Assembly: GCA_025934695.1 (NCBI GenBank)
Contig: JAICWS010000002.1
Coordinates: forward strand, 770,230 to 834,229
Length of the DNA: 64,000 bases
From: Alphaproteobacteria bacterium
GTDB lineage: Bacteria; Pseudomonadota; Alphaproteobacteria; Micavibrionales; UBA2020
Direction of reading: 5' to 3'
Shown here: piece after piece, positions 4,124 through 63,940 of the stretch
Layout: each line of letters opens with the position of its first letter
Numbering within the stretch: position 1 is the stretch's first letter
The notes under the pieces: model-generated
The model's input: the letters and a program-made list of their open reading frames with translations, nothing else
Databases searched by the model: none
What the model was told of the DNA's origin: nothing
Translations under genes and position numbers: made by a program

Positions 4124-6048
4124 CAAATTATCACATGGCGGCCGATTTCTATGACGCGGCCGACGGGCAGCTTATAGAAATCCGTTGGCTCGGCCGAATG
4201 CTTGGAGAGCCAGATGTAAAGGAAATCCTGCCAGCCCGGCAGGCCATAGCGCGGGTGAGATTTTATAGCACGACGAGATAGGAACAGCGAGGTGTCCTCC
4301 CAGTTGAAGTCGATGCCGCTGTCAGGCTGGTGATTGAGCCGCACCAGCTCCTGCTGCACGTTCGGCGTCTCCTGGAAGCCGAAGCGCAGCACGACGACGC
4401 TGAATTCGGGGCTCAGATGCGAAATCAGCATGCGGCCTTCCTGCGGCACATAGGGCTGCGGCTCGATCTTCACCGACAGGATGATGTTTTTCTCATGAAT
4501 GATCTTGTTGTGGCGGATATTCTGCAGCAGAGACGAGGGCGTGCGGTTCGGGTCGGCGGCGAAGAAGAAGGCCGAGCCATGGACTTTGCGCAGGCCCGGG
4601 AACATCGTCTGATACTCGCGGATGAACTTGTCGAGCTTGATCTCGCGCTTGCGGGCGCGGCTGTTGAGGATGAAGGTTCCCTGCACCCAGGTCAGCATCA
4701 GGATGGTGATGCCCGTGGCAATGGCGACCGTCACCCAGCCGCCGTCGACGAATTTCGTCAGGTTTGACGCAAGGAACACGAGATCGATCGTCAGCAAGGG
4801 GCCCATGATGAGCGCCGCTATCCACCATTTCCATTCCCAGCTCTGCCAGATGATGAAGAAGGTCATGATTGCGGTCAGCACCATCGTGCCAGTCACGCTG
4901 ATGCCGTAGGCGGAGGCCATCGCGTCGGACGAGCGGAAGACGAGCACGAAGATGATGACGCCCACCATCAGCAGCCAGTTCACCTGGGGTACGTAAATCT
5001 GGCCATGATGGATGGCCGAGGTGTGCTTGATCTCCATGCGCGGCAGCAGGCCGAGGTTCACGGCCTGGCGGGTGAGCGAATAGGCACCGGTGATGACAGC
5101 CTGGCTCGCGATGATCGTGGCAAGCGTGGTCAGGATGACCAGTGGCATCATCCACTGCGCGCTCACCAGCTTGAAGAAGGGATTGTCGAGCGCCGACGGG
5201 TCATGAATAACAAGGGCGGCCTGGCCCGCGTAGTTCAGCGCGAGCGCCGGCAGCACGAACCACATCCAGGCGGTCTGGATCGGGCGGCGGCCGAAATGGC
5301 CGAGGTCGGCATAGAGCGCTTCCGCCCCGGTCACCGCGAGGAAGACGGAGCCGAGGGCGACGAAGGACACTTTGCCGTGCGCAACGAGGAACAGGGCCGC
5401 GTAATAAGGGTTCATGGCGGTCAGGACGATGGGTGCTTCCTGGATATGCTGAAGTCCCGTGACGGCGAGCACCACGAACCAGACGGCGGTCACCGGACCG
5501 AACAAGGTCGAAACTTTTTCGGTGCCCTTTTTCTGGAAGTAGAACAGCACCAGGATGATCGCGAGGGTGATGGGAATGACATAGGGCGTAAAGGCGGGCG
5601 TCGCGACCTCGAGGCCCTCGATGGCGGACAGGACTGAGAGAGCGGGTGTGATGACGCTGTCGCCGTAGAACAGGGCCGTGCCCATCATGCCCAGCAGCAG
5701 GAACACTGTGGTATTGCGATAGATAACCTGGCGCGCCAGCGCCATCAGGGCGAGGATGCCGCCTTCGCCGTGGTTGTCGACTTTCAGCAGGATGCCGATG
5801 TATTTGATCGTCGGAATGATGATGAGCGTCCACAGGATCAGCGAGAGGATGCCCAGCACATCGTTGACAGCGGCCGTGCCGCCCTCGGGCACGACAGCCT
5901 TCATGCATTCCCGCAAGGTATAGATCGGGCTCGTTCCAATGTCGCCGTAAACGACACCGACGGCGCCGATGGTCAGCTTCCAGAAATGGGAATCTTCACT
6001 CGTGGAATGGGTAGGCGCGCCTTCCGCTTCGTCCTGGGTCGCTTCCAT
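4123..6048 (-). CDS. kup: Kup/HAK/KT family potassium uptake transporter
   Basis: 641 aa, polytopic. N-terminal signature GVVYGDIGTSPIYT and a long cytoplasmic C-terminal domain. Confidence 0.95.
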   Translation of the reverse strand: MEATQDEAEGAPTHSTSEDSHFWKLTIGAVGVVYGDIGTSPIYTLRECMKAVVPEGGTAAVNDVLGILSLILWTLIIIPTIKYIGILLKVDNHGEGGILALMALARQVIYRNTTVFLLLGMMGTALFYGDSVITPALSVLSAIEGLEVATPAFTPYVIPITLAIILVLFYFQKKGTEKVSTLFGPVTAVWFVVLAVTGLQHIQEAPIVLTAMNPYYAALFLVAHGKVSFVALGSVFLAVTGAEALYADLGHFGRRPIQTAWMWFVLPALALNYAGQAALVIHDPSALDNPFFKLVSAQWMMPLVILTTLATIIASQAVITGAYSLTRQAVNLGLLPRMEIKHTSAIHHGQIYVPQVNWLLMVGVIIFVLVFRSSDAMASAYGISVTGTMVLTAIMTFFIIWQSWEWKWWIAALIMGPLLTIDLVFLASNLTKFVDGGWVTVAIATGITILMLTWVQGTFILNSRARKREIKLDKFIREYQTMFPGLRKVHGSAFFFAADPNRTPSSLLQNIRHNKIIHEKNIILSVKIEPQPYVPQEGRMLISHLSPEFSVVVLRFGFQETPNVQQELVRLNHQPDSGIDFNWEDTSLFLSRRAIKSHPRYGLPGWQDFLYIWLSKHSAEPTDFYKLPVGRVIEIGRHVII

Positions 6049-6254
6049 TTGTTGAACACCACTTCTTTGTTTTTGGGAGTGATTATGGGTTCAAGAGCCG
6101 AAGGGGTCGCGTAAATAAGCCGTAAAAAATGGAAATAACTTGTTATTTCAATGCGATGACGACAACTCTCTAAGGGATCACGACCTCCTTTTTTACGGCT
6201 TTTTTACGCGCCAGGAACGAGGCGGGCGCGCAAAGTCGGCGCGGAGTTTATGCC

Positions 6255-7406
6255 ATGAAACGAATTTCCGCCGCGTCGGTCCTGATCTCCCTGTCGCTGT
6301 GTGCCACTTGGGCCGCAGCCGAGGAGTCCGCCGCGCCGGCGCTCATGCCATCTGTCGGCGCGACACTTTCGGCACCCTCGAATCCATATTTTTACAACGT
6401 CCCGGATTTCGGCAAAATCTACATGACCGGCGCCGTGAGCGGCCTCGCCTTCACGCAAAGCCATCACGCAGTGGGCAACGTCGATTCGACCGCCGATTGG
6501 GGCAATGGGCAGGTTTTCGTGCAAAAAGTGGACGGCGTCCTGCAGTTCTTCGTGCAGGCGGGAATTTATTCCGTTCCTTCGTTGGGAACGCCCTATGTCC
6601 GTGCGGAAGATTTCACCGAAAGGACATTCGGTTATTTACCGCAGGGTTTCGCGAAGGTCGCGCCGACCGGCAATTTCTCCGTCGAGGTGGGCAAGCTGCC
6701 CACGCTGTTCGGCGCGGAATCGACCTTCACCTTCCAGAACGTCAACATCGAGCGCGGGCTGCTCTGGAACCAGGAAAACGCCGTTAATCGCGGCGTGCAG
6801 GCAAACTACACCTATGGTCCCGTGGCCTTCAACCTGTCGCTGAACGATGGATTCTACTCGAACAATTACAACTGGCTCACCGGCGCTGCGACCTGGACGA
6901 TCAACAGCTCGAATATGCTGGAGTTCGTGGCCGGCGGAAACCTCAATCATACCTCGCATACCGACTTCGCAACGCCGCTGGCGCAGAACAACGGGCAGAT
7001 TTATGATCTCGAATATACCTGGACATCCGGCCCCTGGGCCCTCGAGCCTTATCTGCAGTATACCCGCACGCCGCAGGACACGGGCCTCGGCCTGGCCCAC
7101 AGCGCCTCGACCTTCGGCGCCGCCGTCGTCGGCAAGTATTCGTTCAACCCGAACTGGAGCCTCGGCGGCCGCGCGGAATATATCGCCGAAAACGGCAGCG
7201 CCGCGTCGCCGAACCTGCTGTATGGACCGAACAGCAACTGCTGGTCCCTGACCCTCACGCCGACCTATCAGCAGGGCATCTGGTTCGGCCGCATGGATGG
7301 TTCATATGTACAGGCGAATAAAATCATCGCAGGCGACGCCTTCGGGGCAGCAGGCAATGATAAATCGCAAGGGCGCCTCATGCTGGAAGCAGGGACGCTG
7401 TTTTAG
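6255..7406 (+). CDS. Outer-membrane beta-barrel protein (porin-like)
   Basis: Signal peptide MKRISAASVLISLSLCATWAAA. Alternating aromatic/Gly-rich strands throughout. Ends in a terminal Phe (EAGTLF), typical of OMP beta-barrels. Confidence 0.7.
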   Translation: MKRISAASVLISLSLCATWAAAEESAAPALMPSVGATLSAPSNPYFYNVPDFGKIYMTGAVSGLAFTQSHHAVGNVDSTADWGNGQVFVQKVDGVLQFFVQAGIYSVPSLGTPYVRAEDFTERTFGYLPQGFAKVAPTGNFSVEVGKLPTLFGAESTFTFQNVNIERGLLWNQENAVNRGVQANYTYGPVAFNLSLNDGFYSNNYNWLTGAATWTINSSNMLEFVAGGNLNHTSHTDFATPLAQNNGQIYDLEYTWTSGPWALEPYLQYTRTPQDTGLGLAHSASTFGAAVVGKYSFNPNWSLGGRAEYIAENGSAASPNLLYGPNSNCWSLTLTPTYQQGIWFGRMDGSYVQANKIIAGDAFGAAGNDKSQGRLMLEAGTLF

Positions 7407-8161
7407 CCGGCCAGGGCGGCGTAGAGCAATATCGCGGTGGTGGCTGACACATTGAGCGACTGCACATGGCCCGAGCCGGGAATGGTCACGATTTCGCTGC
7501 AGGCCTTCAGGCTTGCGGGCGGCAGGCCTTCTTCCTCGTTGCCCATGACGATGGCGAAGGGCTTGCCCGGCTGTTTTTTAAGATTAGGCAGCGGCGTGTA
7601 ATCGCCCAAGGCAGTGCCGATAACATGGTAGAACTCCTGCAGCTGTTTCAGCATGTCGGCAAAATCATTGGCGCCAAATACGTCGATATATTCAAAGCCG
7701 CCTTCCGAAATGCGGTAGGACGCATCCGATAGTCCCGCCTGCTGCGGATGATCCGACAGGACAAGGCGCGGAATGCCAAAAAACGCCGCGGTCCGCGCGA
7801 TGGCGCCGAGGTTGTGCGGATTGCCGATGCCGTCCAGCAGCAGCAGCGGCGCGCCGTCTTTCGCCCATTTGCGCGCCTCCGCGATTTTGAAGAGGTTGAC
7901 GTCTTTCTCGCGCGCGACGGCGACGATGCCGCCGTGCATCGGAGTGCCAGCAATCCGCGCAAGTTCGTCGGGCTGCACTTCCCGGAACGGCTTGCGTGCC
8001 TGGACCATGGCTGCGCAGAACGGTTTAGCCTCGTGCTTCGCGCGTTCATCGTAGAACAGGCGCTCGACGCGATCCGGGTCGCGGTCGAACAGGGCCGCCA
8101 CGGCGGCGTAACCCGCGATGCGGACATCGGTTTTCCGGGCGCCGTATTTCTTCTTCGTCAT
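7403..8161 (-). CDS. TrmH/SpoU family RNA 2'-O-methyltransferase
   Basis: SpoU motifs LLLDGIGNPHNLGAIARTAAFFG, IVMGNEEEGL and IPGSGHVQSLNVSATTAILLY. The start overlaps the upstream peptidase stop as ATGA. Confidence 0.85.
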   Translation of the reverse strand: MTKKKYGARKTDVRIAGYAAVAALFDRDPDRVERLFYDERAKHEAKPFCAAMVQARKPFREVQPDELARIAGTPMHGGIVAVAREKDVNLFKIAEARKWAKDGAPLLLLDGIGNPHNLGAIARTAAFFGIPRLVLSDHPQQAGLSDASYRISEGGFEYIDVFGANDFADMLKQLQEFYHVIGTALGDYTPLPNLKKQPGKPFAIVMGNEEEGLPPASLKACSEIVTIPGSGHVQSLNVSATTAILLYAALAG

Positions 8162-16317: not shown

Positions 16318-16884
16318 ATGTCAAACCAGGGACACACATCGGACACGTTGACGCATCACAGCATGCAGGGCGGCGGCGGCAAAACCAGCGGCGGCTCGAC
16401 TGTCATGGACGGAACATCGGGAAATGACTTTCTGACGGCGCCGGACAGCAGCAACTGGACGCTCAATGGACTGGACGGAAACGACAACCTGACCGGCGGA
16501 AAGGGCAACGATACGCTCAATGGCGGCACCGGCAACGACATGCTGGATGGCGAAGGCGGGCATGACATGCTGACCGGCGGCACGGGCGCCGACACCTTCG
16601 TCTTCGACAGCAATGCGGCGGGCAAAGGCGGCGACGACGTCGTGACCGACTTCAACATGCTGGACGGGGACGTCATCGATATCCAGAGCGTCGTGTCGGG
16701 CTTCGACCCCAACAACCTCGCGAACTTCGTGCAACTGACCGACGACGGCAACGGCAATACGATCGTTTCGGTAAATACCGGCAACACGCATCACGCGCAT
16801 TTCGAACAGGTCGCGACGCTGGAAGGCGTGACCGGCCTTGACGAAAGCGCGATGTTCTCCCGCGGCGCTCTTCTCGTCAACTGA
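16318..16884 (+). CDS. Calcium-binding RTX-repeat protein with a type I secretion C-terminal target domain
   Basis: Tandem GGxGxD nonapeptides (GGKGNDTLNGGTGNDMLDGEGGHDMLTGGTGADTFVF). The C-terminal block DVIDIQ...FVQLTDDGNGNTIVSVN resembles the VC_A0849-type T1SS target domain. Confidence 0.85.
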   Translation: MSNQGHTSDTLTHHSMQGGGGKTSGGSTVMDGTSGNDFLTAPDSSNWTLNGLDGNDNLTGGKGNDTLNGGTGNDMLDGEGGHDMLTGGTGADTFVFDSNAAGKGGDDVVTDFNMLDGDVIDIQSVVSGFDPNNLANFVQLTDDGNGNTIVSVNTGNTHHAHFEQVATLEGVTGLDESAMFSRGALLVN

Positions 16885-21612: not shown

Positions 21613-21733
21613 GCCAAGTCCCTTTTCCATCGCCGCCCCGGTTTTAAGACCGGGGCGGCGATTGCTTTTGGCGAAGATTCGCGGGATGGCATTTTGCTTG
21701 CCGGGTGCTACTATCCTCTCCGGGAAAGAGAGC

Positions 21734-23251
21734 ATGACCGTCCCTTATCACAACCCCATGTCGTTCTGGCTTATGCCGAGCGACGAATTCAACGAATGGC
21801 GCGCGCAGAACGATCTGCCGCAGCTCTATCGTTTTTTCGCCGGACGGCTACCGCATTTCAAAGACTGGCTCGACGAGTTCGGCATCGACGAGGAGATGTT
21901 CTGCAGGGTCGTGCCGACGGGCGCGCTGTTCTTTGGCGAGGGCCGCAAGCTGATCGCGCGCGAAGAGATCGCGAGCGAGAAGAATTCCTTCTATCGGCAC
22001 CGCAACGTCTCGGCGCACGACTTCGAGCGGCGCTATCGCGAGATGGGCCGCCCCGCGCCACCGTACAAGGAATTCGAGCCGTATTTCGCCTGGGCGAAAA
22101 AACACCTGGGGCGCGGGCGCTATTTCCGCCTCGACCCGTCGAACGAGGCGCGCATCGACGGTTTCATCTTCAACCGCTGGACGTCGCACCGCATCCCCGA
22201 AAAAAGCCGCGCGGTGCTGCTGGGCGATTTCGAGGTGCTCAAGCTGGGCGGCGTGACGCTGCAGGAACGCATCTACATGGGCAACCGCAACCTCGACTTT
22301 GCGGACCTCGATTACCTCATCATCAAGGACAAGTGGCACGGGCCCGGCGCGGTCGAGATCAATTTCTCCTCCTGCCGCCACATGGCTTTTTCCGAGACGC
22401 TTTTGTACCACTTCGAATTCCGCGGCTGCGACCTCGACCGGCTACAATGCGTTAAAAGCGACCTGGCGAACTTCAGGTTCATCGACTGCACCGGCAACCA
22501 GCCCTCCTTCAGCGACTGCCGCCTGTCCAAGGTCGCCTTCCTGCGCGGCGCTTTCTTCCCGGAATTCGAGCGTTGCGACATGAAGGACATCGTCTACAAG
22601 CCCGGCCACGGCAGCTCTCCCGCCGCCGTCTCCGACCAGTACCGGCGCCTGCGCACCGCGGCGCAGGGCGCGGGCAAGCGCCACGAAGCCTCGCAGTACT
22701 ATTACCGGGAGCGTAAATACGAACGCAAGGCGCTGGCCAGCCCCTATGCCGAGAACCCGTCGACTTTCTCCGGCTACAGCGGACGCCTGTCAGACGTCGT
22801 CGAGCGCTGGTGGAAGGGCGAGATCACCGGCGTCAAGGCGCTGCGCGATACGATCCGCATCGCGCTGTTTCATCTTGGCGTCTGGACCAGTCCGAAAACT
22901 TTTTCGAAGGCGCTGGGGTTCAAGCTGCGCTATCTCGCGTCATTGTTCGAGGAAATCGTCTGGGGCTATGGCGAACGCCCGTTGCGGATTTTCATGACGG
23001 CCTTCTCGCTGATCGGCCTTTACGCCGCGGTGTATTATTTCTTCGCGCCCGAACTGACGATGGAAGAATCGAAGGCGACGCATCTCGTCAACTCGATCTA
23101 TTTCTCGGTCATCACCTTTACGACGGTAGGCTTCGGCGATATCCTGCCCAAGACGCCGCACATGAAGCTCATCTGCGCATCGGAAGCGCTGTTCGGCTGC
23201 TTCACCATGGGCCTCGTCGTCGCCGGTTTTTCGAACAAGAGTCGCTATTGA
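21734..23251 (+). CDS. Pentapeptide-repeat domain fused to a 2-TM potassium channel pore
   Basis: Start placed at MTVPYHN. The central region has pentapeptide-like repeats (CDLDRLQCVKSDLANFRFIDCTGNQPSFSDCRLSKVAFLRGAFF). The C-terminal pore carries the selectivity filter TTVGFGD between two TM helices. Confidence 0.8.
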   Translation: MTVPYHNPMSFWLMPSDEFNEWRAQNDLPQLYRFFAGRLPHFKDWLDEFGIDEEMFCRVVPTGALFFGEGRKLIAREEIASEKNSFYRHRNVSAHDFERRYREMGRPAPPYKEFEPYFAWAKKHLGRGRYFRLDPSNEARIDGFIFNRWTSHRIPEKSRAVLLGDFEVLKLGGVTLQERIYMGNRNLDFADLDYLIIKDKWHGPGAVEINFSSCRHMAFSETLLYHFEFRGCDLDRLQCVKSDLANFRFIDCTGNQPSFSDCRLSKVAFLRGAFFPEFERCDMKDIVYKPGHGSSPAAVSDQYRRLRTAAQGAGKRHEASQYYYRERKYERKALASPYAENPSTFSGYSGRLSDVVERWWKGEITGVKALRDTIRIALFHLGVWTSPKTFSKALGFKLRYLASLFEEIVWGYGERPLRIFMTAFSLIGLYAAVYYFFAPELTMEESKATHLVNSIYFSVITFTTVGFGDILPKTPHMKLICASEALFGCFTMGLVVAGFSNKSRY

Positions 23252-28822: not shown

Positions 28823-31356
<2,534 letters not shown>

Positions 31357-33062: not shown

Positions 33063-33920
33063 ATGGCAGAGACACCCACCTTCGACCTCAAGAACGGCAA
33101 ACCGCAGCCGTTCCACCTCGTCCGGCCCAGCGTCTGGCCGCTTCTGGGCGCCATCGCCGCGGGGATCCTGACCTCGGGCACGGTCATGTATATGCACAAC
33201 ATCAAAATCGGCGACGTGCCGGTCGGCTTCAAGGGCATCATCCTGGGCTTCCTCGGCGTGCTGGCGACGATGTGGGTATGGTGGAAGGACGTCATCAAGG
33301 AAGCGGTCGTCGAAAAGGCGCATTCGCCCATCGTCAAGATCGGCTTCCGCTACGGCATGGCCCTGTTCATCTCGTCCGAGGTCATGTTCTTCGTGGCCTT
33401 CTTCTGGGCCTTCTTCGCCTCCTCGCTGTTCCCGAAAGAGGCGATCGGCTTCGTCTGGCCGCCCGCGAACGTGCATGCGATCCATCCGTTCGAGCTGCCG
33501 TTCCTCATGACCATGCTGCTGCTCCTCTCGGGCTGCACGGTCACTTGGGCGCACCATGCGATCATCGAGGGCAAACAGCAGGAGGCCACCAAGGCGCTCT
33601 TTATCACCGTCGTCCTTGGCGTCCTGTTCACCTGCTTCCAGGCGTTCGAGTATTACCACGCAACCTTCCGCTTCTCCTCGGCCAACGGCGGCAACATCTA
33701 TTCCTCGGCCTTCTATATGGCGACGGGGTTCCACGGCTTCCACGTGCTGGTCGGCTCGATCTTCCTGATCGTCTGCCTGTTCCGCAACATGAAGGGCCAC
33801 TTCACGCCGACCAGCCACTTCGGCTTCGAGGCGGCAGCTTGGTACTGGCACTTCGTTGACGTGGTATGGCTGTTCCTGTTCACCGCCATCTACTGGTGGG
33901 GCAACGGCCTCGGCCACTAA
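33063..33920 (+). CDS. ctaE: Cytochrome c oxidase subunit III
   Basis: 285 aa, 7 TM. Motifs FFWAFF, FYMATGFHGFHVLVG and WYWHFVDVVWLFLF. Confidence 0.97.
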   Translation: MAETPTFDLKNGKPQPFHLVRPSVWPLLGAIAAGILTSGTVMYMHNIKIGDVPVGFKGIILGFLGVLATMWVWWKDVIKEAVVEKAHSPIVKIGFRYGMALFISSEVMFFVAFFWAFFASSLFPKEAIGFVWPPANVHAIHPFELPFLMTMLLLLSGCTVTWAHHAIIEGKQQEATKALFITVVLGVLFTCFQAFEYYHATFRFSSANGGNIYSSAFYMATGFHGFHVLVGSIFLIVCLFRNMKGHFTPTSHFGFEAAAWYWHFVDVVWLFLFTAIYWWGNGLGH

Positions 33921-33922
33921 AG

Positions 33923-34264
33923 GTGTCGCTGCCCGACGATATCGCTTTCAGCCTTCATCCGCGCTGTCCGGTCTGCCGCAAGGGCCGCCTGTTCAAGCCA
34001 TGGTCGATCAGCGTTGTCGACAAATGCGCAGAATGCGGCGCGAACCTCGGCGCTCATGACGTGGGCGACGGCGCTTCCGTGTTCCTGATCTTCCTGCTGG
34101 GCGCGACGCTGGTGCCTTCCGCCTGGTTCTTCGACAAGGCCTTTTCCCCGCCGCTCTGGGTGCATGCAATCTTGTGGACGGTCGTGGGGCTTTGCATCAT
34201 CGCGCTCGTGCTGCCCGCCGTGAAGGCTTATATCATCCTGCTGGAATTCCGTCACCGGAAGTAG
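33923..34264 (+). CDS. DUF983 membrane protein
   Basis: GTG 33923, just after the ctaE stop. Zinc-ribbon-like CPVCRKGRLF...CAECG followed by two TM helices. This is the usual neighbour of ctaE in alphaproteobacteria. Confidence 0.85.
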   Translation: MSLPDDIAFSLHPRCPVCRKGRLFKPWSISVVDKCAECGANLGAHDVGDGASVFLIFLLGATLVPSAWFFDKAFSPPLWVHAILWTVVGLCIIALVLPAVKAYIILLEFRHRK

Positions 34265-34272
34265 GGCGGAAG

Positions 34273-35115
34273 TTACTTCTTCAACGCGAAGGGCATGATC
34301 GGCGCCGCCGTCTCGGCCATATTGACTGCCGCGCGCAGGACGAGGTTTTCGGTTTTTTCCATCAACGTAGGATTGCGGGCGTAAGACGGATCTGCGTTGA
34401 ACTTCGCCATGACCTTATCGAGGTCCGCGTCATGCTGCGCCTGCGCGGCCGCGTCCTTCTTGCGCTGATCGTTTACCTGGTCGGCATATTTCTTCGTGAA
34501 GTGGGCCTGGCCTTCGCTGTCGAAAGCGACGGTGCCTGACGCCTCGGCCGTCCTGACCTGCAGCGACGTGGGTTCTTTCTCCCGCATTTGTGTCAGCATT
34601 TTCAGCTGCGCGCCGCCGAAAAAGCTCTTGTCGAGACCTTCGGGCGTGGCGTCCGGCAGCGGCGGATCCGGATGTGCCCTGCGCTGCTTCGACAGGTAAT
34701 TGTCGGCCACCATGTCCGCCTGCTGCTCGAGGTTATAATCGAGCAGGTCCTTTTTCGGATCCGGCGTGTAGTCGTAGGCCGAGGTGTAGCAAAAGCCGGA
34801 TTTGAATTCTTCCTTGACCGCCGCAATCCGCGGGTTGAGGACATTGTTCTGGTACTGCCAGATATGCGTCATTTCATGGACGAAACGATGCACGTCGCCC
34901 TTGGAAAAATCGTCGCTGTAACTGTCCGCGCCACAATACATCTCGCCGTTGGGCGTGACTGTCGTGTCCTTCGACTGGAACATATTGCTGGTGTCGTTGT
35001 GGATGCGTACCTTGGAATAGTCGATGGAACCGCCGAAGACGGAGCGGGCAATCTCCAGCTCTCCGGGCGTCAGGCCGCGGCTTTGGCCTTTCGGCAGTTT
35101 CGGCGTGTCATCCAT
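34273..35115 (-). CDS. HExxH metallopeptidase-like protein ('vgr-related protein' type), long form
   Basis: 280 aa with no signal peptide. N-terminal LTPGELEIARSVFGGSIDYSKVRIH, zinc motif FVHEMTHIWQYQN, then DLLDYNLEQQA. Carries an extra C-terminal region relative to its paralogue. Confidence 0.8.
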   Translation of the reverse strand: MDDTPKLPKGQSRGLTPGELEIARSVFGGSIDYSKVRIHNDTSNMFQSKDTTVTPNGEMYCGADSYSDDFSKGDVHRFVHEMTHIWQYQNNVLNPRIAAVKEEFKSGFCYTSAYDYTPDPKKDLLDYNLEQQADMVADNYLSKQRRAHPDPPLPDATPEGLDKSFFGGAQLKMLTQMREKEPTSLQVRTAEASGTVAFDSEGQAHFTKKYADQVNDQRKKDAAAQAQHDADLDKVMAKFNADPSYARNPTLMEKTENLVLRAAVNMAETAAPIMPFALKK

Positions 35116-35233
35116 TCCCGATATCCCATTCGTAACCCTAGAAATATATTACCATAACTTGCAAAAGATTCCGACTGCCGCCTTAAAACGCCAAGCATTT
35201 CAAGCAGCAGCGGATGGCTTCTGCGGGAAAATA

Positions 35234-35818
35234 TCAGGCGGCTTTGGGCGGCTTCGGCTTGCCGAGGCCAAAGGCGGGGAAGGCGGTGCGTTTCGCATAG
35301 GCCGGATCGGCCAGGAATTTTTCCAGCACCTTTTCGTAGAGCCGGAGCTTTTCGACATCATCACAGGGATTATAGCAGCGGTCCCAGACCGAGGTGCCGC
35401 GGTCCTTCAGCACGAAGTAATCCTGAACAATGGTCGCCTGCTGCTCCATGTTGTAGTCGAGCAGGTCCTTTTTATCGTCCAGCACGTAATTGTAGGCGGC
35501 GGCGTAGTCGAACTTGTGCTTCACCGCCAGTTTCGCGGCCGTCGCAATGGGGTTCAGCACCTTGTTCTGGTACTGCCAGACATGGGTCATTTCATGCAGG
35601 AAAGTACCCTGCCACAGCGTGTCTTCCGTGCTGTAATCCGTTTTGTAGCAGCCCGGCATGAAGAGGCTGCCGTTCGGCGCCATGGCCGTGCCCTCGGGCA
35701 GAAACGGAATTCCCATGAATTTCTGATCCGAGACAGTAACTGTCGCGTAGTCGATGGAATCCGCAAAAATCGTGCGCGCGAGCGCGATTTCGCCTTTGGT
35801 CAAAGGACGCGAGACCAT
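35234..35818 (-). CDS. HExxH metallopeptidase-like protein ('vgr-related protein' type), short form
   Basis: 194 aa. Motifs LTKGEIALARTIFADSIDYATVTV, FLHEMTHVWQYQN and DLLDYNMEQQA. Colinear with 34273-35115 over its N-terminal ~130 aa; the shared ADP(S/A)YA(R/K) motif sits near the C-terminal end of both proteins. Confidence 0.8.
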   Translation of the reverse strand: MVSRPLTKGEIALARTIFADSIDYATVTVSDQKFMGIPFLPEGTAMAPNGSLFMPGCYKTDYSTEDTLWQGTFLHEMTHVWQYQNKVLNPIATAAKLAVKHKFDYAAAYNYVLDDKKDLLDYNMEQQATIVQDYFVLKDRGTSVWDRCYNPCDDVEKLRLYEKVLEKFLADPAYAKRTAFPAFGLGKPKPPKAA

Positions 35819-35915
35819 GGAGCCTCTTCTGTAAATTATGTATAAAGATTGCTATTCCTTCTTGCCGAACAAAGTTACTATAATCAAGCAAAATTTATCC
35901 GAGGTTTTCAAAGCC

Positions 35916-36647
35916 ATGGCGGCGAGAAAATTCCGTCCTACCCTGCTTTCCAGTCTCATCACTTTTGCGCTTTTCGGCGTCATGATCTGGCTCGGTACCT
36001 GGCAGGTGCACCGCATGCACTGGAAAGAAAGCATGCTGGCCCAGATCAATGAAAATATGGCCCGCAAGCCGGTGCCGATGCCCGAGAAGATCGACAATCC
36101 GGAGGACTGGAAGTTCCGGCGGGTGACGCTGGCGGGTTCGTTCGACTACAGCCACGAAATGCTCGTGAAGCCGCGCACCCTGGACGGTGCAGTGGGTTAT
36201 GACATGGTGGTGCCCTTTATTCGCGCTTCCGGCGGCACGGTGCTGGTCGACCGGGGCTGGATTTCCGACGCGCTGATGGACAAGGCCAGCCGCCCCGACC
36301 ACGGCATGATGCAGATCGAAGGCGTCCTGCGCACGCCGGAAAAGCCCAGCTTCTTCACGCCCGACAACAACCCCGCCAAGAAGGACTGGTTCTGGACCGA
36401 CGTCAAAGGCATGGCGGATGCCGCGGGTCTGGAGGATGTCGCACCGATGGTTCTCTATATCTCGGCCAAGCAGCCCGGCGTCTACCCCGTCGGCGGCCGC
36501 GTGCAGGGCCTCCAGGTCGCCATTCTTCCGAACGACCACAAGCAATATGCGATTTTTTGGTTCGGCATGTCCTTCGTGCTGCTGATCGTCTGGTTTTTGT
36601 CGCATCTTGAACGCGCGTCTTTAGAGGAAAAACATGCAAGCCTATAA
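35916..36647 (+). CDS. SURF1 family cytochrome oxidase biogenesis protein
   Basis: Start placed at MAARKFRPTLL. Motifs LGTWQVHRMHWKESML, and a C-terminal TM helix after HKQYAIFWFGMS. Confidence 0.9.
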   Translation: MAARKFRPTLLSSLITFALFGVMIWLGTWQVHRMHWKESMLAQINENMARKPVPMPEKIDNPEDWKFRRVTLAGSFDYSHEMLVKPRTLDGAVGYDMVVPFIRASGGTVLVDRGWISDALMDKASRPDHGMMQIEGVLRTPEKPSFFTPDNNPAKKDWFWTDVKGMADAAGLEDVAPMVLYISAKQPGVYPVGGRVQGLQVAILPNDHKQYAIFWFGMSFVLLIVWFLSHLERASLEEKHASL

Positions 36648-59891: not shown

Positions 59892-61037
59892 TTAAGGATT
59901 GCCGGCTTGCGGTTTCAGTGTTTTCTTGGCCAGGCGCGCGCCGAAGACGGCCTCGTCGTCGGCCTTGCCGCCCAGATCGCGCAAGGCACGGAGCGCCTTG
60001 TCCAGCAGCCCCTCGGGTGTCGCATCGAAAGACATGGGCTGCGTGACGGTTTCCGCCTGCGTCCGGAGGTTTTCCGAGATGGTGAAACGCTCGCGGCTTT
60101 CGAAATTGAATACTTCCGTCAGACGGCGCAGCAGCGCCGGATGGACGCTGACGCGCGCGACCTTTTCCTCGCCCATCAGCACCCAGGCTTCCGCGTCGCT
60201 CAAGGGGAGCTCGGTCGCCGTCGCATTCAGCGGCGTGGTGCGGCTCGCGATGATTTTTTTCACATGCGGCTCGATAAGCGGCACGATCGCCGCCGCGTGA
60301 TTGGACCGCCGCGCACATTCGAGCGCATCCTGGGACTGGCTGTTGAGAATATCGACGCGCGCCCCGCGGTCGATCAGCAGCTTGACGATATCCGCCTCGC
60401 CGGCGTTGATCGCGGAGTGGAGCGCCGTATTCCTGTAGTCCGCCCGCGCGTTGATATCAGCGCCTTTGTCGAGCAGCGCCTGGGCCAGGTCAAGCTGACC
60501 ATGCATTGCCGCATAATGAAGCGGACGGTATCCATTACTGGCGCGGGCATTGGGATTCGCCCCGGCGTCGATCATGTCTCCAGCCAGTTTCCATGCGCTC
60601 TTCTCAAGCGCCTTCAACAGCGGAGCACCCTTGCTCACATCGGCTTTCGCGTCGAGCAGGAGGCGGGCGATCTCCGTGTTGCTGCCGTGGCGGTTCAGCG
60701 AAAGGCTGAGAATACTTTCGTCATTCGGCATCTCGGCGTTCGGGTCCGCCCCGGCCTTGAGCAGCGCGGCGACAATCTCCTTGGCCCCATCGGGGTTGCG
60801 CAGGACGGCAAGCGCGAGCGGCGTATAGCCAAATTGGCAGGTGGCGTCGACGGGGAATCCCGCCTGGATCAGGGCTTCCACGGTTTCGGTGTGGCCTTCC
60901 TGCGCTGCCAGGTGCAACGCAGTATTTCCATCGTTGCGCGCAGCAAGGCACACCTGCGGCTCGCGCTGCAGGTACTGCCTGACGGCGTCGGTATCGCCCC
61001 GTTCGGCGGCTTTCAGGAAATTCCGCGCGGTGAACAA
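59892..61037 (-). CDS. Ankyrin-repeat protein with conserved C-terminal module (array member 2, largest)
   Basis: Probable TTG start 61037, 7 nt after GGAG, giving (M)FTARNFLKAAERGD like its paralogues. The track start 61079 is also TTG. More ANK repeats than the other members. C-terminal EAWVLMG...TEVFNFESRER...ENLRTQAE...LGG, with a divergent tail KKTLKPQAGNP. Confidence 0.85.
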   Translation of the reverse strand: MFTARNFLKAAERGDTDAVRQYLQREPQVCLAARNDGNTALHLAAQEGHTETVEALIQAGFPVDATCQFGYTPLALAVLRNPDGAKEIVAALLKAGADPNAEMPNDESILSLSLNRHGSNTEIARLLLDAKADVSKGAPLLKALEKSAWKLAGDMIDAGANPNARASNGYRPLHYAAMHGQLDLAQALLDKGADINARADYRNTALHSAINAGEADIVKLLIDRGARVDILNSQSQDALECARRSNHAAAIVPLIEPHVKKIIASRTTPLNATATELPLSDAEAWVLMGEEKVARVSVHPALLRRLTEVFNFESRERFTISENLRTQAETVTQPMSFDATPEGLLDKALRALRDLGGKADDEAVFGARLAKKTLKPQAGNP

Positions 61038-61069
61038 TGGATTGCTCCATAAATACGGTAAACTATCGC

Positions 61070-61098
61070 AATATGGCAAGTTTTTGGCACGACGTCAA
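61070..61098 (-). promoter_or_regulatory. Candidate internal promoter in the only long spacer of the ankyrin array
   Basis: The minus strand reads TTGACG, 17-nt spacer, CATATT, ending about 30 nt upstream of the TTG 61037 start. Confidence 0.3.
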
Positions 61099-61138
61099 TT
61101 CTGTAAATTTGGCCAAAAATCAGCTTGTTAGGAAACGC

Positions 61139-62065
61139 CTACAGATTGAAGGATTTCTTCGCTGCCTTGTCGGCCGGATCTCCGCCCAGTTGCCGGAAGG
61201 CGTCCGCCGCCTGCGCGACCGCGGCATCGGACAGCATGTCGAACTTTTCCGCCGGTCCCATCGTCTCCGCGCCCGTCTTGAGGTTCTCGGTGATGACGAT
61301 GCGCTCGCGGGTCGCAAAGTTGAAAACTTGGGTGATCTTGCGCGCAAGGTCCGGGTAAACGCCGACATGGGCCGCCTTGTCCTCGCCCATGCGCTTCCAG
61401 GTCTCGCTGTCGGCGCAGGCTGCCGCCGGCGCTATCGTCGCGGCAGGAGCTGGCGCTTCTTTCCGGGGCGCCTTGAGCGCCGCGTCGATCATCGCCGCGA
61501 TGCGCGGTTTATTCTGACGCGCATAAGACGCAGGCGTGACTCCATCGGTTCCGGGAATATCGGGCCGCGCGCCCGCGTCCAGCAGGAATTGAACCATGGC
61601 GCCGCGATTTGACGCGACGGCGTAATAAAGTGGCGTACGTTCTTCCGTGGTATTGACGGGATCGATTAGGGCACCGCGCGAAATGAGGTCCTTCGCGGTG
61701 TCGAGATCGCCCAGATGAGCGGCCCAATGCAGTGCATATGAATATGTCGGAGCATGCGCATTGACGTCCGCCCCCGCCGCCATCAGGACTTTCGCGGCTT
61801 CAGGCTTTCCTTCGGAGACGGCAACGAACAGCGGCGTGGCGCCGATAGTGTTGCTGGCCTCAATGTCCGCCTTCATTTCGATCAGGAAGCGGAGCGCCTC
61901 GATCCGGCCATGCTTCGCCGCCAGGTGCAGGGCCGTATTGCCTTCCTTGTCGCGGACGCTGGCCGGCAGATATTCGGGAATATAATAGTCGTAGCAATAC
62001 TTCAGCTCGGCGACATCGCCCGCGGCGGCGGCTTTGAGGAATTTCTTCTGCGGCGATCCGAACAT
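61139..62065 (-). CDS. Ankyrin-repeat protein with conserved C-terminal module (array member 3)
   Basis: N-terminal MFGSPQKKFLKAAAAGD. ANK repeats (GNTALHLAAKHGRIEALRFLIEMKADIE...). C-terminal ETWKRMG...TQVFNFATRER...ENLKTGAE...LGG...KKSFNL. Confidence 0.88.
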   Translation of the reverse strand: MFGSPQKKFLKAAAAGDVAELKYCYDYYIPEYLPASVRDKEGNTALHLAAKHGRIEALRFLIEMKADIEASNTIGATPLFVAVSEGKPEAAKVLMAAGADVNAHAPTYSYALHWAAHLGDLDTAKDLISRGALIDPVNTTEERTPLYYAVASNRGAMVQFLLDAGARPDIPGTDGVTPASYARQNKPRIAAMIDAALKAPRKEAPAPAATIAPAAACADSETWKRMGEDKAAHVGVYPDLARKITQVFNFATRERIVITENLKTGAETMGPAEKFDMLSDAAVAQAADAFRQLGGDPADKAAKKSFNL

Positions 62066-62077
62066 GACGTCCTGCGC

Positions 62078-63025
62078 TTAAAGGTTGAAGGCTTTTTTGG
62101 CGCCCTTGTCGGGCTGCTCGCCGCCCAGCGACTTCAGCTTCTCGGCCGCCCGCGCGAGAATGTCGGGGGAAAGGGCGTCGAACTTTTCGGGCGGCGTCAT
62201 GGTCTCGGCCGCGGTCTTCAGGTTCTCGGTGATGACCGTGCGTTCGCCCGCGGTGAAATTGAAGATCTCGGTCAGCTTGCGGGAAATGGGCGGATAGACG
62301 TTGACATGCGCAAGCGTGTCCGGGGCCAGCAGCATCCAGCTCTCGCCCGCGACGATCGGCTCGTTTGCGGGCGCTTGTGCGGCTGCGGGCTGCGAGACCG
62401 GCACCGGCGCATGCATGCCGCGTTTCTGGGCCGCTTCGATCATTTCCTGCAGCGCCTTGCTACCGATCGCCTTCGCGCGGTCCCAGGCGACGTAATTGTT
62501 GCTGTCCTTCATGTCCGTGCGCGCCCCCTGGTCGAGCAGGAACTGCGCTTCGGGGTTGCGGCGGTTTTCGACCGCCATGTGCAGCGGCGTCTGGAGATAG
62601 CTGCGCGTCACCACGTTGAGGTCCGCGCCCGCGCCCGCCAGCGCCTTGACGGCATCGAGATCGCCGTTGCGCGCCGCCCAGTGCAGCGGATAATAATAGT
62701 CGTTGTCGTGCGCGCTGACGTTCGCGCCCGCCGCGACGAGAAGCTTCGTGGCCTCCGTGCAGCGGTTGTAGCAGGCCCACCACAGGGCGGTGCGTCCCGA
62801 ACTGTCGGCGATTTCCAGGTCGGCCTTCTTCGCGATCAGGATCTTCAGCGTGTCGACCGCGCCCGCCTTGGCCGCGAGGATCAGCGCCGTGCGGCCCGCG
62901 CCGCCGCGCACGTTGATGTCGTATTGCGAAGGAATGTCCTGCGACAGGCAGCGGTTGAGCTCGGCCACATCGCCGCCTGAGGCGGCATTGAGGAATTTTT
63001 TCTGCGGTGAGGATCCGAACATCAT
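62078..63025 (-). CDS. Ankyrin-repeat protein with conserved C-terminal module (array member 4)
   Basis: N-terminal MMFGSSPQKKFLNAASGGD. ANK repeats. C-terminal ESWMLLA...TEIFNFTAGER...ENLKTAAE...LGG...KKAFNL. Confidence 0.88.
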   Translation of the reverse strand: MMFGSSPQKKFLNAASGGDVAELNRCLSQDIPSQYDINVRGGAGRTALILAAKAGAVDTLKILIAKKADLEIADSSGRTALWWACYNRCTEATKLLVAAGANVSAHDNDYYYPLHWAARNGDLDAVKALAGAGADLNVVTRSYLQTPLHMAVENRRNPEAQFLLDQGARTDMKDSNNYVAWDRAKAIGSKALQEMIEAAQKRGMHAPVPVSQPAAAQAPANEPIVAGESWMLLAPDTLAHVNVYPPISRKLTEIFNFTAGERTVITENLKTAAETMTPPEKFDALSPDILARAAEKLKSLGGEQPDKGAKKAFNL

Positions 63026-63031
63026 TGCACC

Positions 63032-63940
63032 TTAAAGGTTAAAAGCTTTCTTCTGGCCGCGCTCGGGAGGCTGGCCGCCCAGGCTTTTCAGCCGGTCTTC
63101 GGCGCGTCCCACCACCTCCTCGCCCAGAGTTTCGAATTTTTCGGGCTGCGCCAGGCTTTCCGCGCCGGTCTTCAGGTTTTCTGCGATGATGACGCGCTCG
63201 CGGTTCTCGAAATTGAAGATCTCGGTGATCCGGCGGCCCATCGATGGATAGTCGGCGATATGCGCCACGCGCGCCGCGCCCATGAGCTTCCAGCTATCGC
63301 CATCTTCCGCCGGAGAAGTTTCGGCTTGCGGCGCTTTCTGTTTCGCGGCGGCGGTGATGATATTCAGGAGGCGGTCGGTTCTCTTGTCGCGCGCATGGTC
63401 GGCAGGCGTCTTGTTGTCGCGGTCGGCGATATCAGTGCGCGCGTGGCTCGCCATCAGGAATTCGACGACCGGCCCGTGGCCGTTGATGACCGCCCAATGG
63501 AGGGCGGTGCGGCCGGTTTCCTTGCTGACGGCATTCAGGTCGGCGCCCGCTGAAACAAGGTCTTTGACGACATCGAGCTGGCCGTAGCGCGCGGCGGTCA
63601 GCAGCGGCGAGACATAGCTGGTCGTATGCGTGTTGACGTCGGCGCCCGACGCGATCAGGAAACGCGCCACGGCGGTCTTGTCGTTGGTGATGGCGATGTG
63701 CAGCGGTGTCTTGCCGTCGCCGTCGGAGATGTTCAGGTCGGCCTTCGCTTCGACCAGCGCTTTGACCGCGTCAAGCTGGCCGCTTTCGGCCGCCAGATAC
63801 AAAGCCGTTTTACCGCTGCCGTTTTTGACGTCGACGCTGAAGTTGCCCGGAACCAGGGCGGAAAGGCAATATAGCAGCTCCGCCATGTCGCCTTTCGCCG
63901 CGGCCTTCAGAAAGGATTTTTTCGAGCTGATGAAAGCCAT
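63032..63940 (-). CDS. Ankyrin-repeat protein with conserved C-terminal module (array member 5)
   Basis: N-terminal MAFISSKKSFLKAAAKGD. ANK repeats (GKTALYLAAESGQLDAVKALVEAKADLN...). C-terminal DSWKLMG...TEIFNFENRER...ENLKTGAE...LGG...KKAFNL. Confidence 0.88.
   Translation of the reverse strand: MAFISSKKSFLKAAAKGDMAELLYCLSALVPGNFSVDVKNGSGKTALYLAAESGQLDAVKALVEAKADLNISDGDGKTPLHIAITNDKTAVARFLIASGADVNTHTTSYVSPLLTAARYGQLDVVKDLVSAGADLNAVSKETGRTALHWAVINGHGPVVEFLMASHARTDIADRDNKTPADHARDKRTDRLLNIITAAAKQKAPQAETSPAEDGDSWKLMGAARVAHIADYPSMGRRITEIFNFENRERVIIAENLKTGAESLAQPEKFETLGEEVVGRAEDRLKSLGGQPPERGQKKAFNL

Follow-up and report, generated by a model that had tools for sequence, protein, structure and literature searches.

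The closest described relatives of the genes discussed here are type VI secretion system (T6SS) effectors. The C-terminal domain of the spike protein VgrG2b has been described as a thermolysin-like gluzincin of subclan MA(E), in which zinc is held by the histidine pair of an HExxH motif and by E983 (PMC6899460). This domain is toxic only once in the periplasm, with septal blebbing and lysis as the outcome, and the periplasmic immunity protein PA0261 neutralises it (PMC6899460). The VgrG2b domain and the Tpe1-Tpi1 pair of Acinetobacter baylyi have been united in one type VI metallopeptidase effector-immunity family, of which all characterised members (VgrG2b-Cter, Tpe1) are periplasm-acting antibacterial toxins (PMC6899460). 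According to Wood et al., Tpe1 and the enterobacterial cargo-type genes are located in T6SS loci, and a small envelope-targeted open reading frame (ORF) invariably follows the peptidase gene (PMC6899460). This report describes two paralogous genes of the same family, A and B, found in the cytochrome c oxidase (cox) region of an alphaproteobacterium of the order Micavibrionales (assembly GCA_025934695.1, contig JAICWS010000002.1, positions 770,230 to 834,229); this stretch of 64,000 nucleotides is referred to as the window. To our knowledge, peptidases of the Tpe / VgrG2b-C-terminal family are otherwise known only as T6SS-delivered periplasmic toxins that are accompanied by an immunity protein.

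Gene A (34273-35115, minus strand) encodes a protein of 280 residues with a peptidase core, an inserted helical module and an amphipathic C-terminal tail. Gene B (35234-35818, minus strand) encodes a shorter, standalone peptidase of 194 residues. These coordinates were read from the ORF list and are exactly those given in an initial annotation of the window. Both genes run antisense to the co-directional cox-SURF1 cluster and occupy the slot between its DUF983 and SURF1 genes, of which B is the conserved member. In phmmer searches of the PDB, the sole entry recovered was the VgrG2b domain (6h56_A), which matched residues 3-137 of B at E 5.2e-25 and residues 12-143 of A at E 2e-23. The AlphaFold2 (AF2) model of B has a predicted local distance difference test (pLDDT) score of 90.5 and a predicted template modelling (pTM) score of 0.87. 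In Foldseek comparisons with the PDB, counted at E of at most 0.001, this model matched 6h56_A/B only, with TM scores of 0.62-0.67, a root-mean-square deviation of 2.5 A over 142 columns and 39% identity. The AF2 model of A reached a pLDDT of 76, and 6H56 was again the only significant match.

The catalytic residues of VgrG2b have counterparts in both proteins (all features of A and B are on the minus strand). The catalytic core of B, residues 3-140 (35399-35812), aligns to residues 98-230 of the 6H56 chain and cross-matches A in tblastn; that of A, residues 12-145 (34681-35082), was delimited by BLASTP against B and aligns to residues 98-231. The zinc-binding and catalytic HExxH motif of B is H75-E76-M77-T78-H79 (35582-35596), which aligns with the HEMTH of VgrG2b; in A it is H80-E81-M82-T83-H84 (34864-34878), invariant in 12 A-type orthologues. 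The predicted third zinc ligand is Glu125 of B, in the sequence NMEQQ (35444-35446), and Glu130 of A, in NLEQQ (34726-34728). Both residues are invariant and align with the glutamate of the VgrG2b sequence NIEQQ, which lies 44 residues after the second histidine and is therefore E983. Homology searches returned 11 full-length orthologues of A, at 55-66% identity, and 310 homologues of B. H75, E76, H79 and E125 are invariant in 37 B-type homologues, and across orthologues the sequences HEMTH(I/V)WQYQN and (M/L)EQQA show little or no variation. Because the HExxH motif and the EQQ glutamate are invariant in the orthologues, A and B retain the full predicted catalytic set of HExxH and third-ligand glutamate. 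Homology and modelled fold together place A and B firmly in the Tpe / VgrG2b-C-terminal family as predicted thermolysin-like gluzincin metallopeptidases. The initial annotation had proposed HExxH metallopeptidases homologous to the C-terminal domain of VgrG spikes, and both the 6H56 matches and the sole fold match bear this out.

Curated family models have little to say about either protein. No match was found for A or B in NCBIfam, PADLOC or PHROGs (cutoff E of at most 0.01 for the latter two). A link to DUF4157-like domains had also been suggested. This link is weak: the corresponding Pfam model, eCIS_core (PF13699), scored below threshold on A (15.5 bits, E 0.02; cutoff 22); the model did not match B, and it occurs as a precomputed domain on one distant homologue (P0075). 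Pfam DUF6782 was likewise below threshold on B (17.4 bits against a cutoff of 27) and covered only 30 residues around the HExxH motif. Pfam has no model that matches the peptidase domain even in VgrG2b itself; family-wide, there is no adequate Pfam or NCBIfam model and database naming is inconsistent. Some homologues carry legacy names such as "Rhs element Vgr protein" and "type IV secretion protein Rhs", which account for the name "vgr related protein" cited in the initial annotation.

A and B were described as colinear paralogues in the initial annotation, and every motif quoted there was found in the two proteins. In BLASTP they share 46% identity over 140 residues (E 3e-37), and a second colinear segment spans the C-terminal family motif ADPxYA. 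This motif is ADPAYAK in B (residues 170-176, 35291-35311; BLASTP segment with A), where P172 and Y174 are nearly invariant in the homologue alignment, and ADPSYAR in A (residues 241-247, 34375-34395), where P243, Y245, A246 and R247 are invariant. Upstream of this motif, A carries an inserted module at residues ~146-232 (34420-34680) that cannot be aligned to B. The module is modelled as helices and a beta-hairpin at pLDDT 88-93, and it is kept among A orthologues, for example in the sequences TPE..EKGFF and FTQKYAD. It had no Pfam or PDB match and no counterpart in B or VgrG2b. Extra sequence before ADPSYAR had been noticed previously and is indeed present, but its size of "roughly 85 aa" fits, approximately, the total length difference: between the core and the motif the net excess is about 66 residues (88 against 22). 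The remainder of the 86-residue length difference is made up of 9 residues at the N-terminus and the longer C-terminal tail of A. In the A-orthologue alignment, this tail (residues 248-280, 34276-34374) appears as an amphipathic helix, modelled at low confidence (pLDDT 46-53). It terminates in a P-x-x-P-hydrophobic-basic sequence, a type that is conserved among A orthologues. B ends in a disordered Lys/Pro-rich tail, GKPKPPKAA, with a pLDDT of about 58-60.

A separate observation concerns the nucleotide level. The 54 nucleotides that encode the FxHEMTHxWQYQNxVLNP helix (34832-34885 in A, 35550-35603 in B) are 87% identical between the two genes, compared with 46% identity of the proteins overall, which may reflect either strong constraint at the active-site helix or local gene conversion between the paralogues.

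The position of A and B was compared with an outgroup sample obtained by a metagenome scan with CtaE, consisting of 80 cox loci among the matches listed (51-67% CtaE identity). DUF983 was followed directly by SURF1 on the same strand in 32 of the 58 informative loci, with a gap of -60 to +139 bp, and in the other 26 COX3 was followed by SURF1 with no detectable DUF983. The junction of DUF983 or COX3 with SURF1 was interrupted in none of the 58, so the premise of the initial annotation that DUF983 normally directly precedes SURF1 holds. A peptidase homologue was present in none of the 80 outgroup cox loci listed. As no outgroup locus carries a peptidase at this junction, the occupied slot is the derived state.

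Within Micavibrio-like bacteria, the slot was found to be occupied in 14 distinct genomes, with one to three family copies and peptidase identities down to 46%. One copy is present in seven genomes, two in four (the window, L087, L004 and L012) and three in L086. In all loci at least 52% identical to B (L001 (Micavibrio sp.), L003, L004-L006, L007, L008, L009 (uncultured Micavibrio), L010, L011 and L012), the gene adjoins SURF1, and DUF983 and COX3 lie on the opposite side in most. L004-L006 and L010 are rearranged on the DUF983/COX3 side, and in L004 the cox genes are gone from that side. The contigs with A-type orthologues (L086, L087 and one Joint Genome Institute (JGI) contig) have the same slot arrangement, and the wider region YidC-EngB-cox-SURF1-M32-ThrC-DHODH-EAL is collinear across Micavibrio-like loci. 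At identities to B of at most 47%, none of 73 family loci adjoins cox genes. A sample independent of the peptidase consisted of five long ingroup contigs picked by CtaE identity alone (69-74%). The slot is occupied in L169 by a 204-residue member that is 46% identical to both A and B and has an intact HEMVH. It is empty in L168, where DUF983 and SURF1 are separated by 17 bp and M32 is missing too. The region is rearranged in L170, and the slot is empty in L171 and L172, whose downstream genes differ. Several other CtaE contigs are identical in length to peptidase contigs (for example 440469, 817858 and 233731), so that further genomes may be occupied. The joint lack of peptidase and M32 in L168 suggests a local deletion or replacement. 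In the same locus (5958-7743; CtaE 74%, DUF983 67% and SURF1 51% identical), an antisense Lcl_C-like gene was observed after SURF1.

In composition and selection, A and B resemble their neighbours. GC content at third codon positions (GC3) is 0.78 in A and 0.76 in B, compared with 0.76 in SURF1, 0.76 in DUF983, 0.80 in M32 and 0.79 in ThrC. Rough NG86 estimates of the ratio of nonsynonymous to synonymous substitution (dN/dS), which are for qualitative use as dS is near saturation at 0.7-1.3, were 0.24-0.31 for A and 0.26-0.34 for B. The neighbouring genes gave 0.18-0.24 (SURF1), 0.25-0.35 (DUF983), 0.20-0.23 (CtaG) and 0.12-0.21 (M32). A and B are thus under purifying selection at the level of the less-constrained housekeeping neighbours. 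In a neighbour-joining (NJ) tree, built without bootstrap and used qualitatively, orthologues of A and B form separate clades, and both cluster with other standalone forms, apart from the clade of PAAR- and VgrG-fused proteins. Because the orthologue clades are separate, the A/B duplication predates the split of the genomes of the window, L087 and L086. These data show a single old insertion in the ancestor of the Micavibrio-like clade, followed by vertical descent, an early A/B duplication and occasional loss or expansion. The initial annotation had proposed an insertion into the DUF983-SURF1 junction. The insertion itself stands, given the 58 uninterrupted outgroup loci, but as a recent or strain-specific event it does not, with the slot filled in 14 genomes. 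The alternative considered there, an ancestral arrangement throughout the order, is right as to age but not as to universality, since L168 is empty and copies vary from one to three.

The family to which A and B belong is large. A profile search with B-type sequences among 1.84 billion representatives recovered at least 4,246 clusters at 50% identity (E of at most 1e-3), 1,900 of them at E of at most 1e-10. A scan of species-representative genomes recovered at least 565 loci in Alpha-, Beta-, Gamma- and Deltaproteobacteria and beyond, of which 80 were kept for reading architectures and neighbours. The majority of carriers in these 80 loci are standalone proteins of 150-200 residues. VgrG fusions are in the minority and comprise L046, the VgrG2b of P. 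paraeruginosa, which has Phage_GPD, T6SS_Vgr and DUF2345 domains, as well as L034 from Massilia. PAAR fusions of ~400-430 residues occur in Xanthomonas, Stenotrophomonas and Alcanivorax (PAAR Pfam E 6.6e-22). Cargo-type loci from enterobacteria are represented by L043, L057, L062, L067 and L080.

What might such peptidases do in a Micavibrio-like bacterium? By analogy with the characterised relatives, we tentatively favour, at somewhat less than even confidence, a reading in which A and B are exported effectors that are harmless in the cytoplasm of the producer and act on the envelope of another cell. Both proteins would be synthesised in the cytoplasm without a signal peptide and, as their relatives are toxic only in the periplasm, would do no harm there. 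They would then be exported by machinery encoded elsewhere and, like VgrG2b and Tpe1, may cleave an envelope or periplasmic protein of a prey cell or competitor. The lack of an adjacent immunity gene would mean either that the cell and its siblings are not exposed or that another locus provides protection. A cytoplasmic precursor without immunity would be feasible because the relatives are non-toxic in the cytoplasm (PMC6899460).

The effector reading is favoured for four reasons. No activity other than toxic action on the envelope of another cell has been demonstrated for the family, and the slot shows an arsenal-like change in copy number, from one to three, with an HLMAY copy in L086. Furthermore, L086 has immunity-like neighbours, and the nearest named relatives of the window are Micavibrio metagenome-assembled genomes, the cultured species of this genus being an epibiotic predator. 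Cultured M. aeruginosavorus is an obligate one. The absence of the gene from the slot of L168 shows that it is dispensable, which was counted as effector-like behaviour. The slot of L086 (3944-7825) contains five genes: a B-type peptidase, two anchored proteins, a decayed A-like copy in which HExxH has become HLMAY, and an A-type peptidase. The two anchored proteins come directly after the B-type gene, at +14 and +3 nt. They are unrelated proteins, and both are membrane-anchored at the N-terminus; one (235 residues) is without a Pfam match and the other (190 residues) has a weak match to DUF2939. No homologue of either was found in the window. By position they could be immunity proteins, as both their position and their topology are like those reported for Tpi-type immunity proteins (PMC6899460).

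Several observations weigh against this effector reading. In a crude screen by hydrophobicity and start position (from -30 to +40 nt relative to the stop codon), no immunity-like ORF was found downstream of A or B. The 12 Micavibrio-like loci that were retrieved with B, from 9 distinct genomes, had none after the peptidase either, compared with about 30 of 73 loci outside the clade. These ORFs encode mutually homologous, lipoprotein-like "PCF"-motif proteins of 139-183 residues in the PAAR- and VgrG-fused types, and a related set of their own in the enterobacterial cargo types. When 23 immunity-like proteins were used in tblastn against the window, no homologue was found; the best match (E 0.019) lay inside the peptidase genes. 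Delivery genes are equally absent from the surroundings. Two VgrG and two PAAR queries gave no tblastn match in the 64 kb window or in syntenic flanks, and Pfam searches of 10 further window ORFs revealed no T6SS component, secretion machinery or mobility gene, but sensor kinases, a porin, an S9 peptidase, an ion channel, a solute-binding protein, an RTX-repeat protein and ankyrin-repeat proteins. Neither protein has a signal peptide, an N-terminal loading or adaptor domain, or a VgrG or PAAR fusion, as the peptidase domain begins at residue 3 in B and at residue 12 in A. The absence of signal peptide, immunity gene and mobility gene had all been noted before and is borne out here, the last by the ORF list and the repeat search. 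The genome of M. aeruginosavorus is reported to encode type I and type II secretion systems and no type III or IV system; T6SS is unmentioned in its description (PMC3189940). It is also atypical of polymorphic toxins to have a fixed position in the core genome, native composition and the conservation of housekeeping genes. Finally, a role outside the T6SS has been suspected by Wood et al. for homologues of the Sphingomonadaceae (PMC6899460).

Two observations from other clades bear on the immunity question. Standalone homologues of 184-298 residues in Caballeronia (L023, L024, L028, L030, L032, L033, L035, L037 and L040) lack an immunity-like ORF downstream, and neither a VgrG nor a PAAR gene lies within 6 kb of them; immunity-less orphans are therefore not limited to the Micavibrio-like clade. 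In Erythrobacter and Sphingopyxis (L053, L069, L075 and L082), a conserved protein of ~190 residues (MSQFEFVFVLYSLVLGLSLVELL...) with a hydrophobic N-terminus overlaps the stop codon of the peptidase gene. This protein has no relation to the PCF-motif lipoproteins of T6SS-linked loci and may represent a distinct immunity or partner family of the sphingomonad clade, which had puzzled Wood et al.

A narrower version of the effector reading specifies a T6SS-independent route. A and B would serve Micavibrio-like bacteria as core effectors of antagonism or predation and might reach the prey envelope by type I secretion or through the predator-prey attachment junction, and the basic or amphipathic C-terminal tails could act as an export or targeting element. 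This version is rather improbable. That the tails are type I signals is pure speculation: RTX repeats are absent, and the termini are basic instead of acidic/hydrophobic.

The strongest competitor to the effector reading is that A and B are endogenous peptidases rather than weapons. They would act in the cytoplasm or at the inner membrane face on the cell's own proteins, in processing, quality control or regulation, and the T6SS toxins of the family would be a recruited offshoot. We regard this as a substantial possibility, although one below the exported effector in our estimation. It agrees with the finding of no signal peptide, immunity gene or delivery gene at the locus or in the window, with the core-genome position in 14 genomes and native GC3, and with purifying selection on a par with the neighbouring housekeeping genes. 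It also agrees with the family at large, whose 4,246 clusters appear to be mostly short standalone proteins, and with the grouping of A and B with standalone forms, away from the PAAR/VgrG-fused clade. The non-T6SS role raised for the Sphingomonadaceae homologues points in the same direction (PMC6899460). Against it stand the characterised members, VgrG2b-Cter and Tpe1, which are all periplasmic antibacterial toxins (PMC6899460), and the slot of L086 with its copy-number variation, degenerate copy and immunity-like membrane-anchored neighbours. Moreover, the gene is missing from the near relative L168 and from all outgroup cox loci, and hence is not essential, and the gene context points to no cytoplasmic substrate or partner. 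To roles outside those considered in this report we assign a small residual probability.

The remaining explanations fare far worse. A recently acquired T6SS effector islet within the cox cluster would be in line with the homology to a VgrG effector domain, the antisense orientation within a co-directional cluster and a slightly lower GC content (0.52-0.60 across A, B and the adjacent start of SURF1, compared with about 0.61 in the window). It is very improbable, since the same slot is filled in 14 genomes, with flanking proteins that have diverged in step, the A and B clades are older than the genome split, and there is no immunity gene. No repeats, insertion sequence (IS) or integrase remnants were found: no IS, integrase or other mobility gene lies beside A and B, and a repeat search found no insertion scar, the direct repeats being paralogous coding segments of A and B only and the inverted repeats chance ones within coding sequence. 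Recent horizontal transfer was rejected on GC3, equal to that of the neighbours, and synteny. An accessory role in cytochrome c oxidase biogenesis, tied to the maturation of Cox subunits or to SURF1, would explain why the adjacency to SURF1 is stable in all occupied genomes, even in L004 without its flanking cox genes. The wider region is collinear anyway, so that this adjacency needs no functional cause, and none of the 73 distant family loci adjoins cox genes. This role was rejected, and is most unlikely, because A and B lie on the strand opposite to the entire cox-SURF1 cluster and because all 58 informative outgroup cox loci, as well as L168, L171 and L172, are without a peptidase. Annotation artefacts or decaying, functionless pseudogenes, as which A and B might be taken for being unrecognised by any curated family model, were rejected as next to impossible on dN/dS values well under 1 and intact motifs, along with intact ORFs, conserved starts and catalytic residues, confident predicted folds and hundreds of homologues.

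The layout of the slot can be described briefly. The plus-strand genes ctaC, ctaD, ctaB, ctaG and ctaE lead up to the DUF983 gene (33866-34264, plus strand; Pfam PF06170, E 4.8e-19), which forms the left boundary of the slot and is convergent with A. The SURF1 ORF (35838-36647, plus strand; Pfam PF02104, E 5.2e-48) forms the right boundary, is divergent from B and is followed by genes for an M32 carboxypeptidase, ThrC, DHODH and an EAL protein. SURF1 orthologues measure 235-241 residues; translation therefore probably starts at the ATG at 35916, as the initial annotation had it, and not at the first ATG at 35838. This start leaves a divergent intergenic region of 97 bp between B and SURF1 (35819-35915). 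A and B are separated by an AT-richer spacer of 118 bp without an ORF (35116-35233). An AAGAGG Shine-Dalgarno sequence lies 6 nt 5' of the ATG of B, and the N-terminus of A (MDDTPKLPKG...) agrees with that of its orthologues (MGDDAPKLPKG...). A scan of the slot for promoters and terminators gave no sigma-70-like (consensus) promoter and no minus-strand terminator, in itself an uninformative negative, and Rfam had no match in the region.

Some features elsewhere in the window may be of interest in their own right. A protein of 188 residues (16318-16884, plus strand) has RTX calcium-binding nonapeptide repeats (HemolysinCabind, E 5.8e-14); small RTX-repeat proteins usually leave the cell by type I secretion. 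Four tandem paralogous genes (59892-63940, minus strand) encode proteins of 395, 308, 315 and 302 residues with similar N-termini, M(M)FGS(S)PQKKFL.AA..GD.AEL..., and the two that were scanned contain ankyrin repeats (Ank_2 E 2e-37, Ank E 1.4e-27). A tandem ankyrin array is unusual in a free-living alphaproteobacterium and is commoner in bacteria that interact with hosts or prey. In a protein of 529 residues (21662-23251, plus strand), pentapeptide repeats occur together with an Ion_trans_2 potassium-channel domain at the C-terminus. In the CtaD (COX1) ORF, a His/Asp-rich stretch precedes the conserved start (29740-29810, plus strand); it may be an extension that binds metal, or the ORF may have been called too long.

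The Micavibrio-like slot offers a natural test case for whether the family also operates outside the T6SS and for what its members cleave. Should A and B prove to be exported weapons, they would be candidates for the step by which epibiotic predators kill, which is poorly understood. If they are delivered independently of the T6SS, the Tpe family would be uncoupled from that system and epibiotic predation would gain a concrete molecular weapon. As endogenous enzymes, they would instead indicate the ancestral function behind the recruitment of the toxins.

How do A and B compare with the systems already known? VgrG2b (PDB 6H56) shares with them a catalytic domain at about 39-42% identity over about 135-140 residues, the fold, the HEMTHVWQ active-site helix, the third-ligand glutamate in (N)xEQQ and a related C-terminal helix motif. 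VgrG2b differs in its fusion to a T6SS spike and in the immunity gene PA0261 at +4 nt (L046), whereas A and B are standalone, lack an immunity neighbour and nearby T6SS genes, and reside in a conserved housekeeping cluster; A has in addition a module of about 90 residues and a C-terminal tail. Tpe1-Tpi1 of A. baylyi (ACIAD0053/ACIAD0054) and the SARI_02727-type cargo resemble B in being standalone, near-bare peptidase domains of ~175-200 residues, but in the enterobacterial cargo-type loci, unlike in the window, a gene for a lipoprotein or membrane-anchored immunity protein lies directly downstream. The PAAR-fused homologues of Alcanivorax, Xanthomonas, Stenotrophomonas and Luteimonas share with B a peptidase domain at 36-40% identity and the F-x-x-D-P motif; they differ from A and B in their N-terminal PAAR domain and in a 'PCF'-motif lipoprotein ORF that overlaps the stop codon. 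The homologues of Sphingomonadaceae and Erythrobacteraceae are, like A and B, short standalone proteins (about 150-170 residues) from lineages in which T6SS is rare, but they belong to another tree clade, lie outside cox clusters and in several cases have a downstream membrane protein. The eCIS_core and DUF6782 families show weak local similarity at the HExxH helix; their scores are below threshold, and neither model covers the domain. Against this background, the domain family and its standalone "cargo" form were already known. What is new is the configuration without immunity gene or linked T6SS gene, fixed in the housekeeping cluster of one lineage, together with the ancient split of the A and B lineages, the extra helical module of A and its C-terminal tail. 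A and B are no surprise in themselves, and they provide a useful lead on the non-T6SS roles and substrates of Tpe peptidases.

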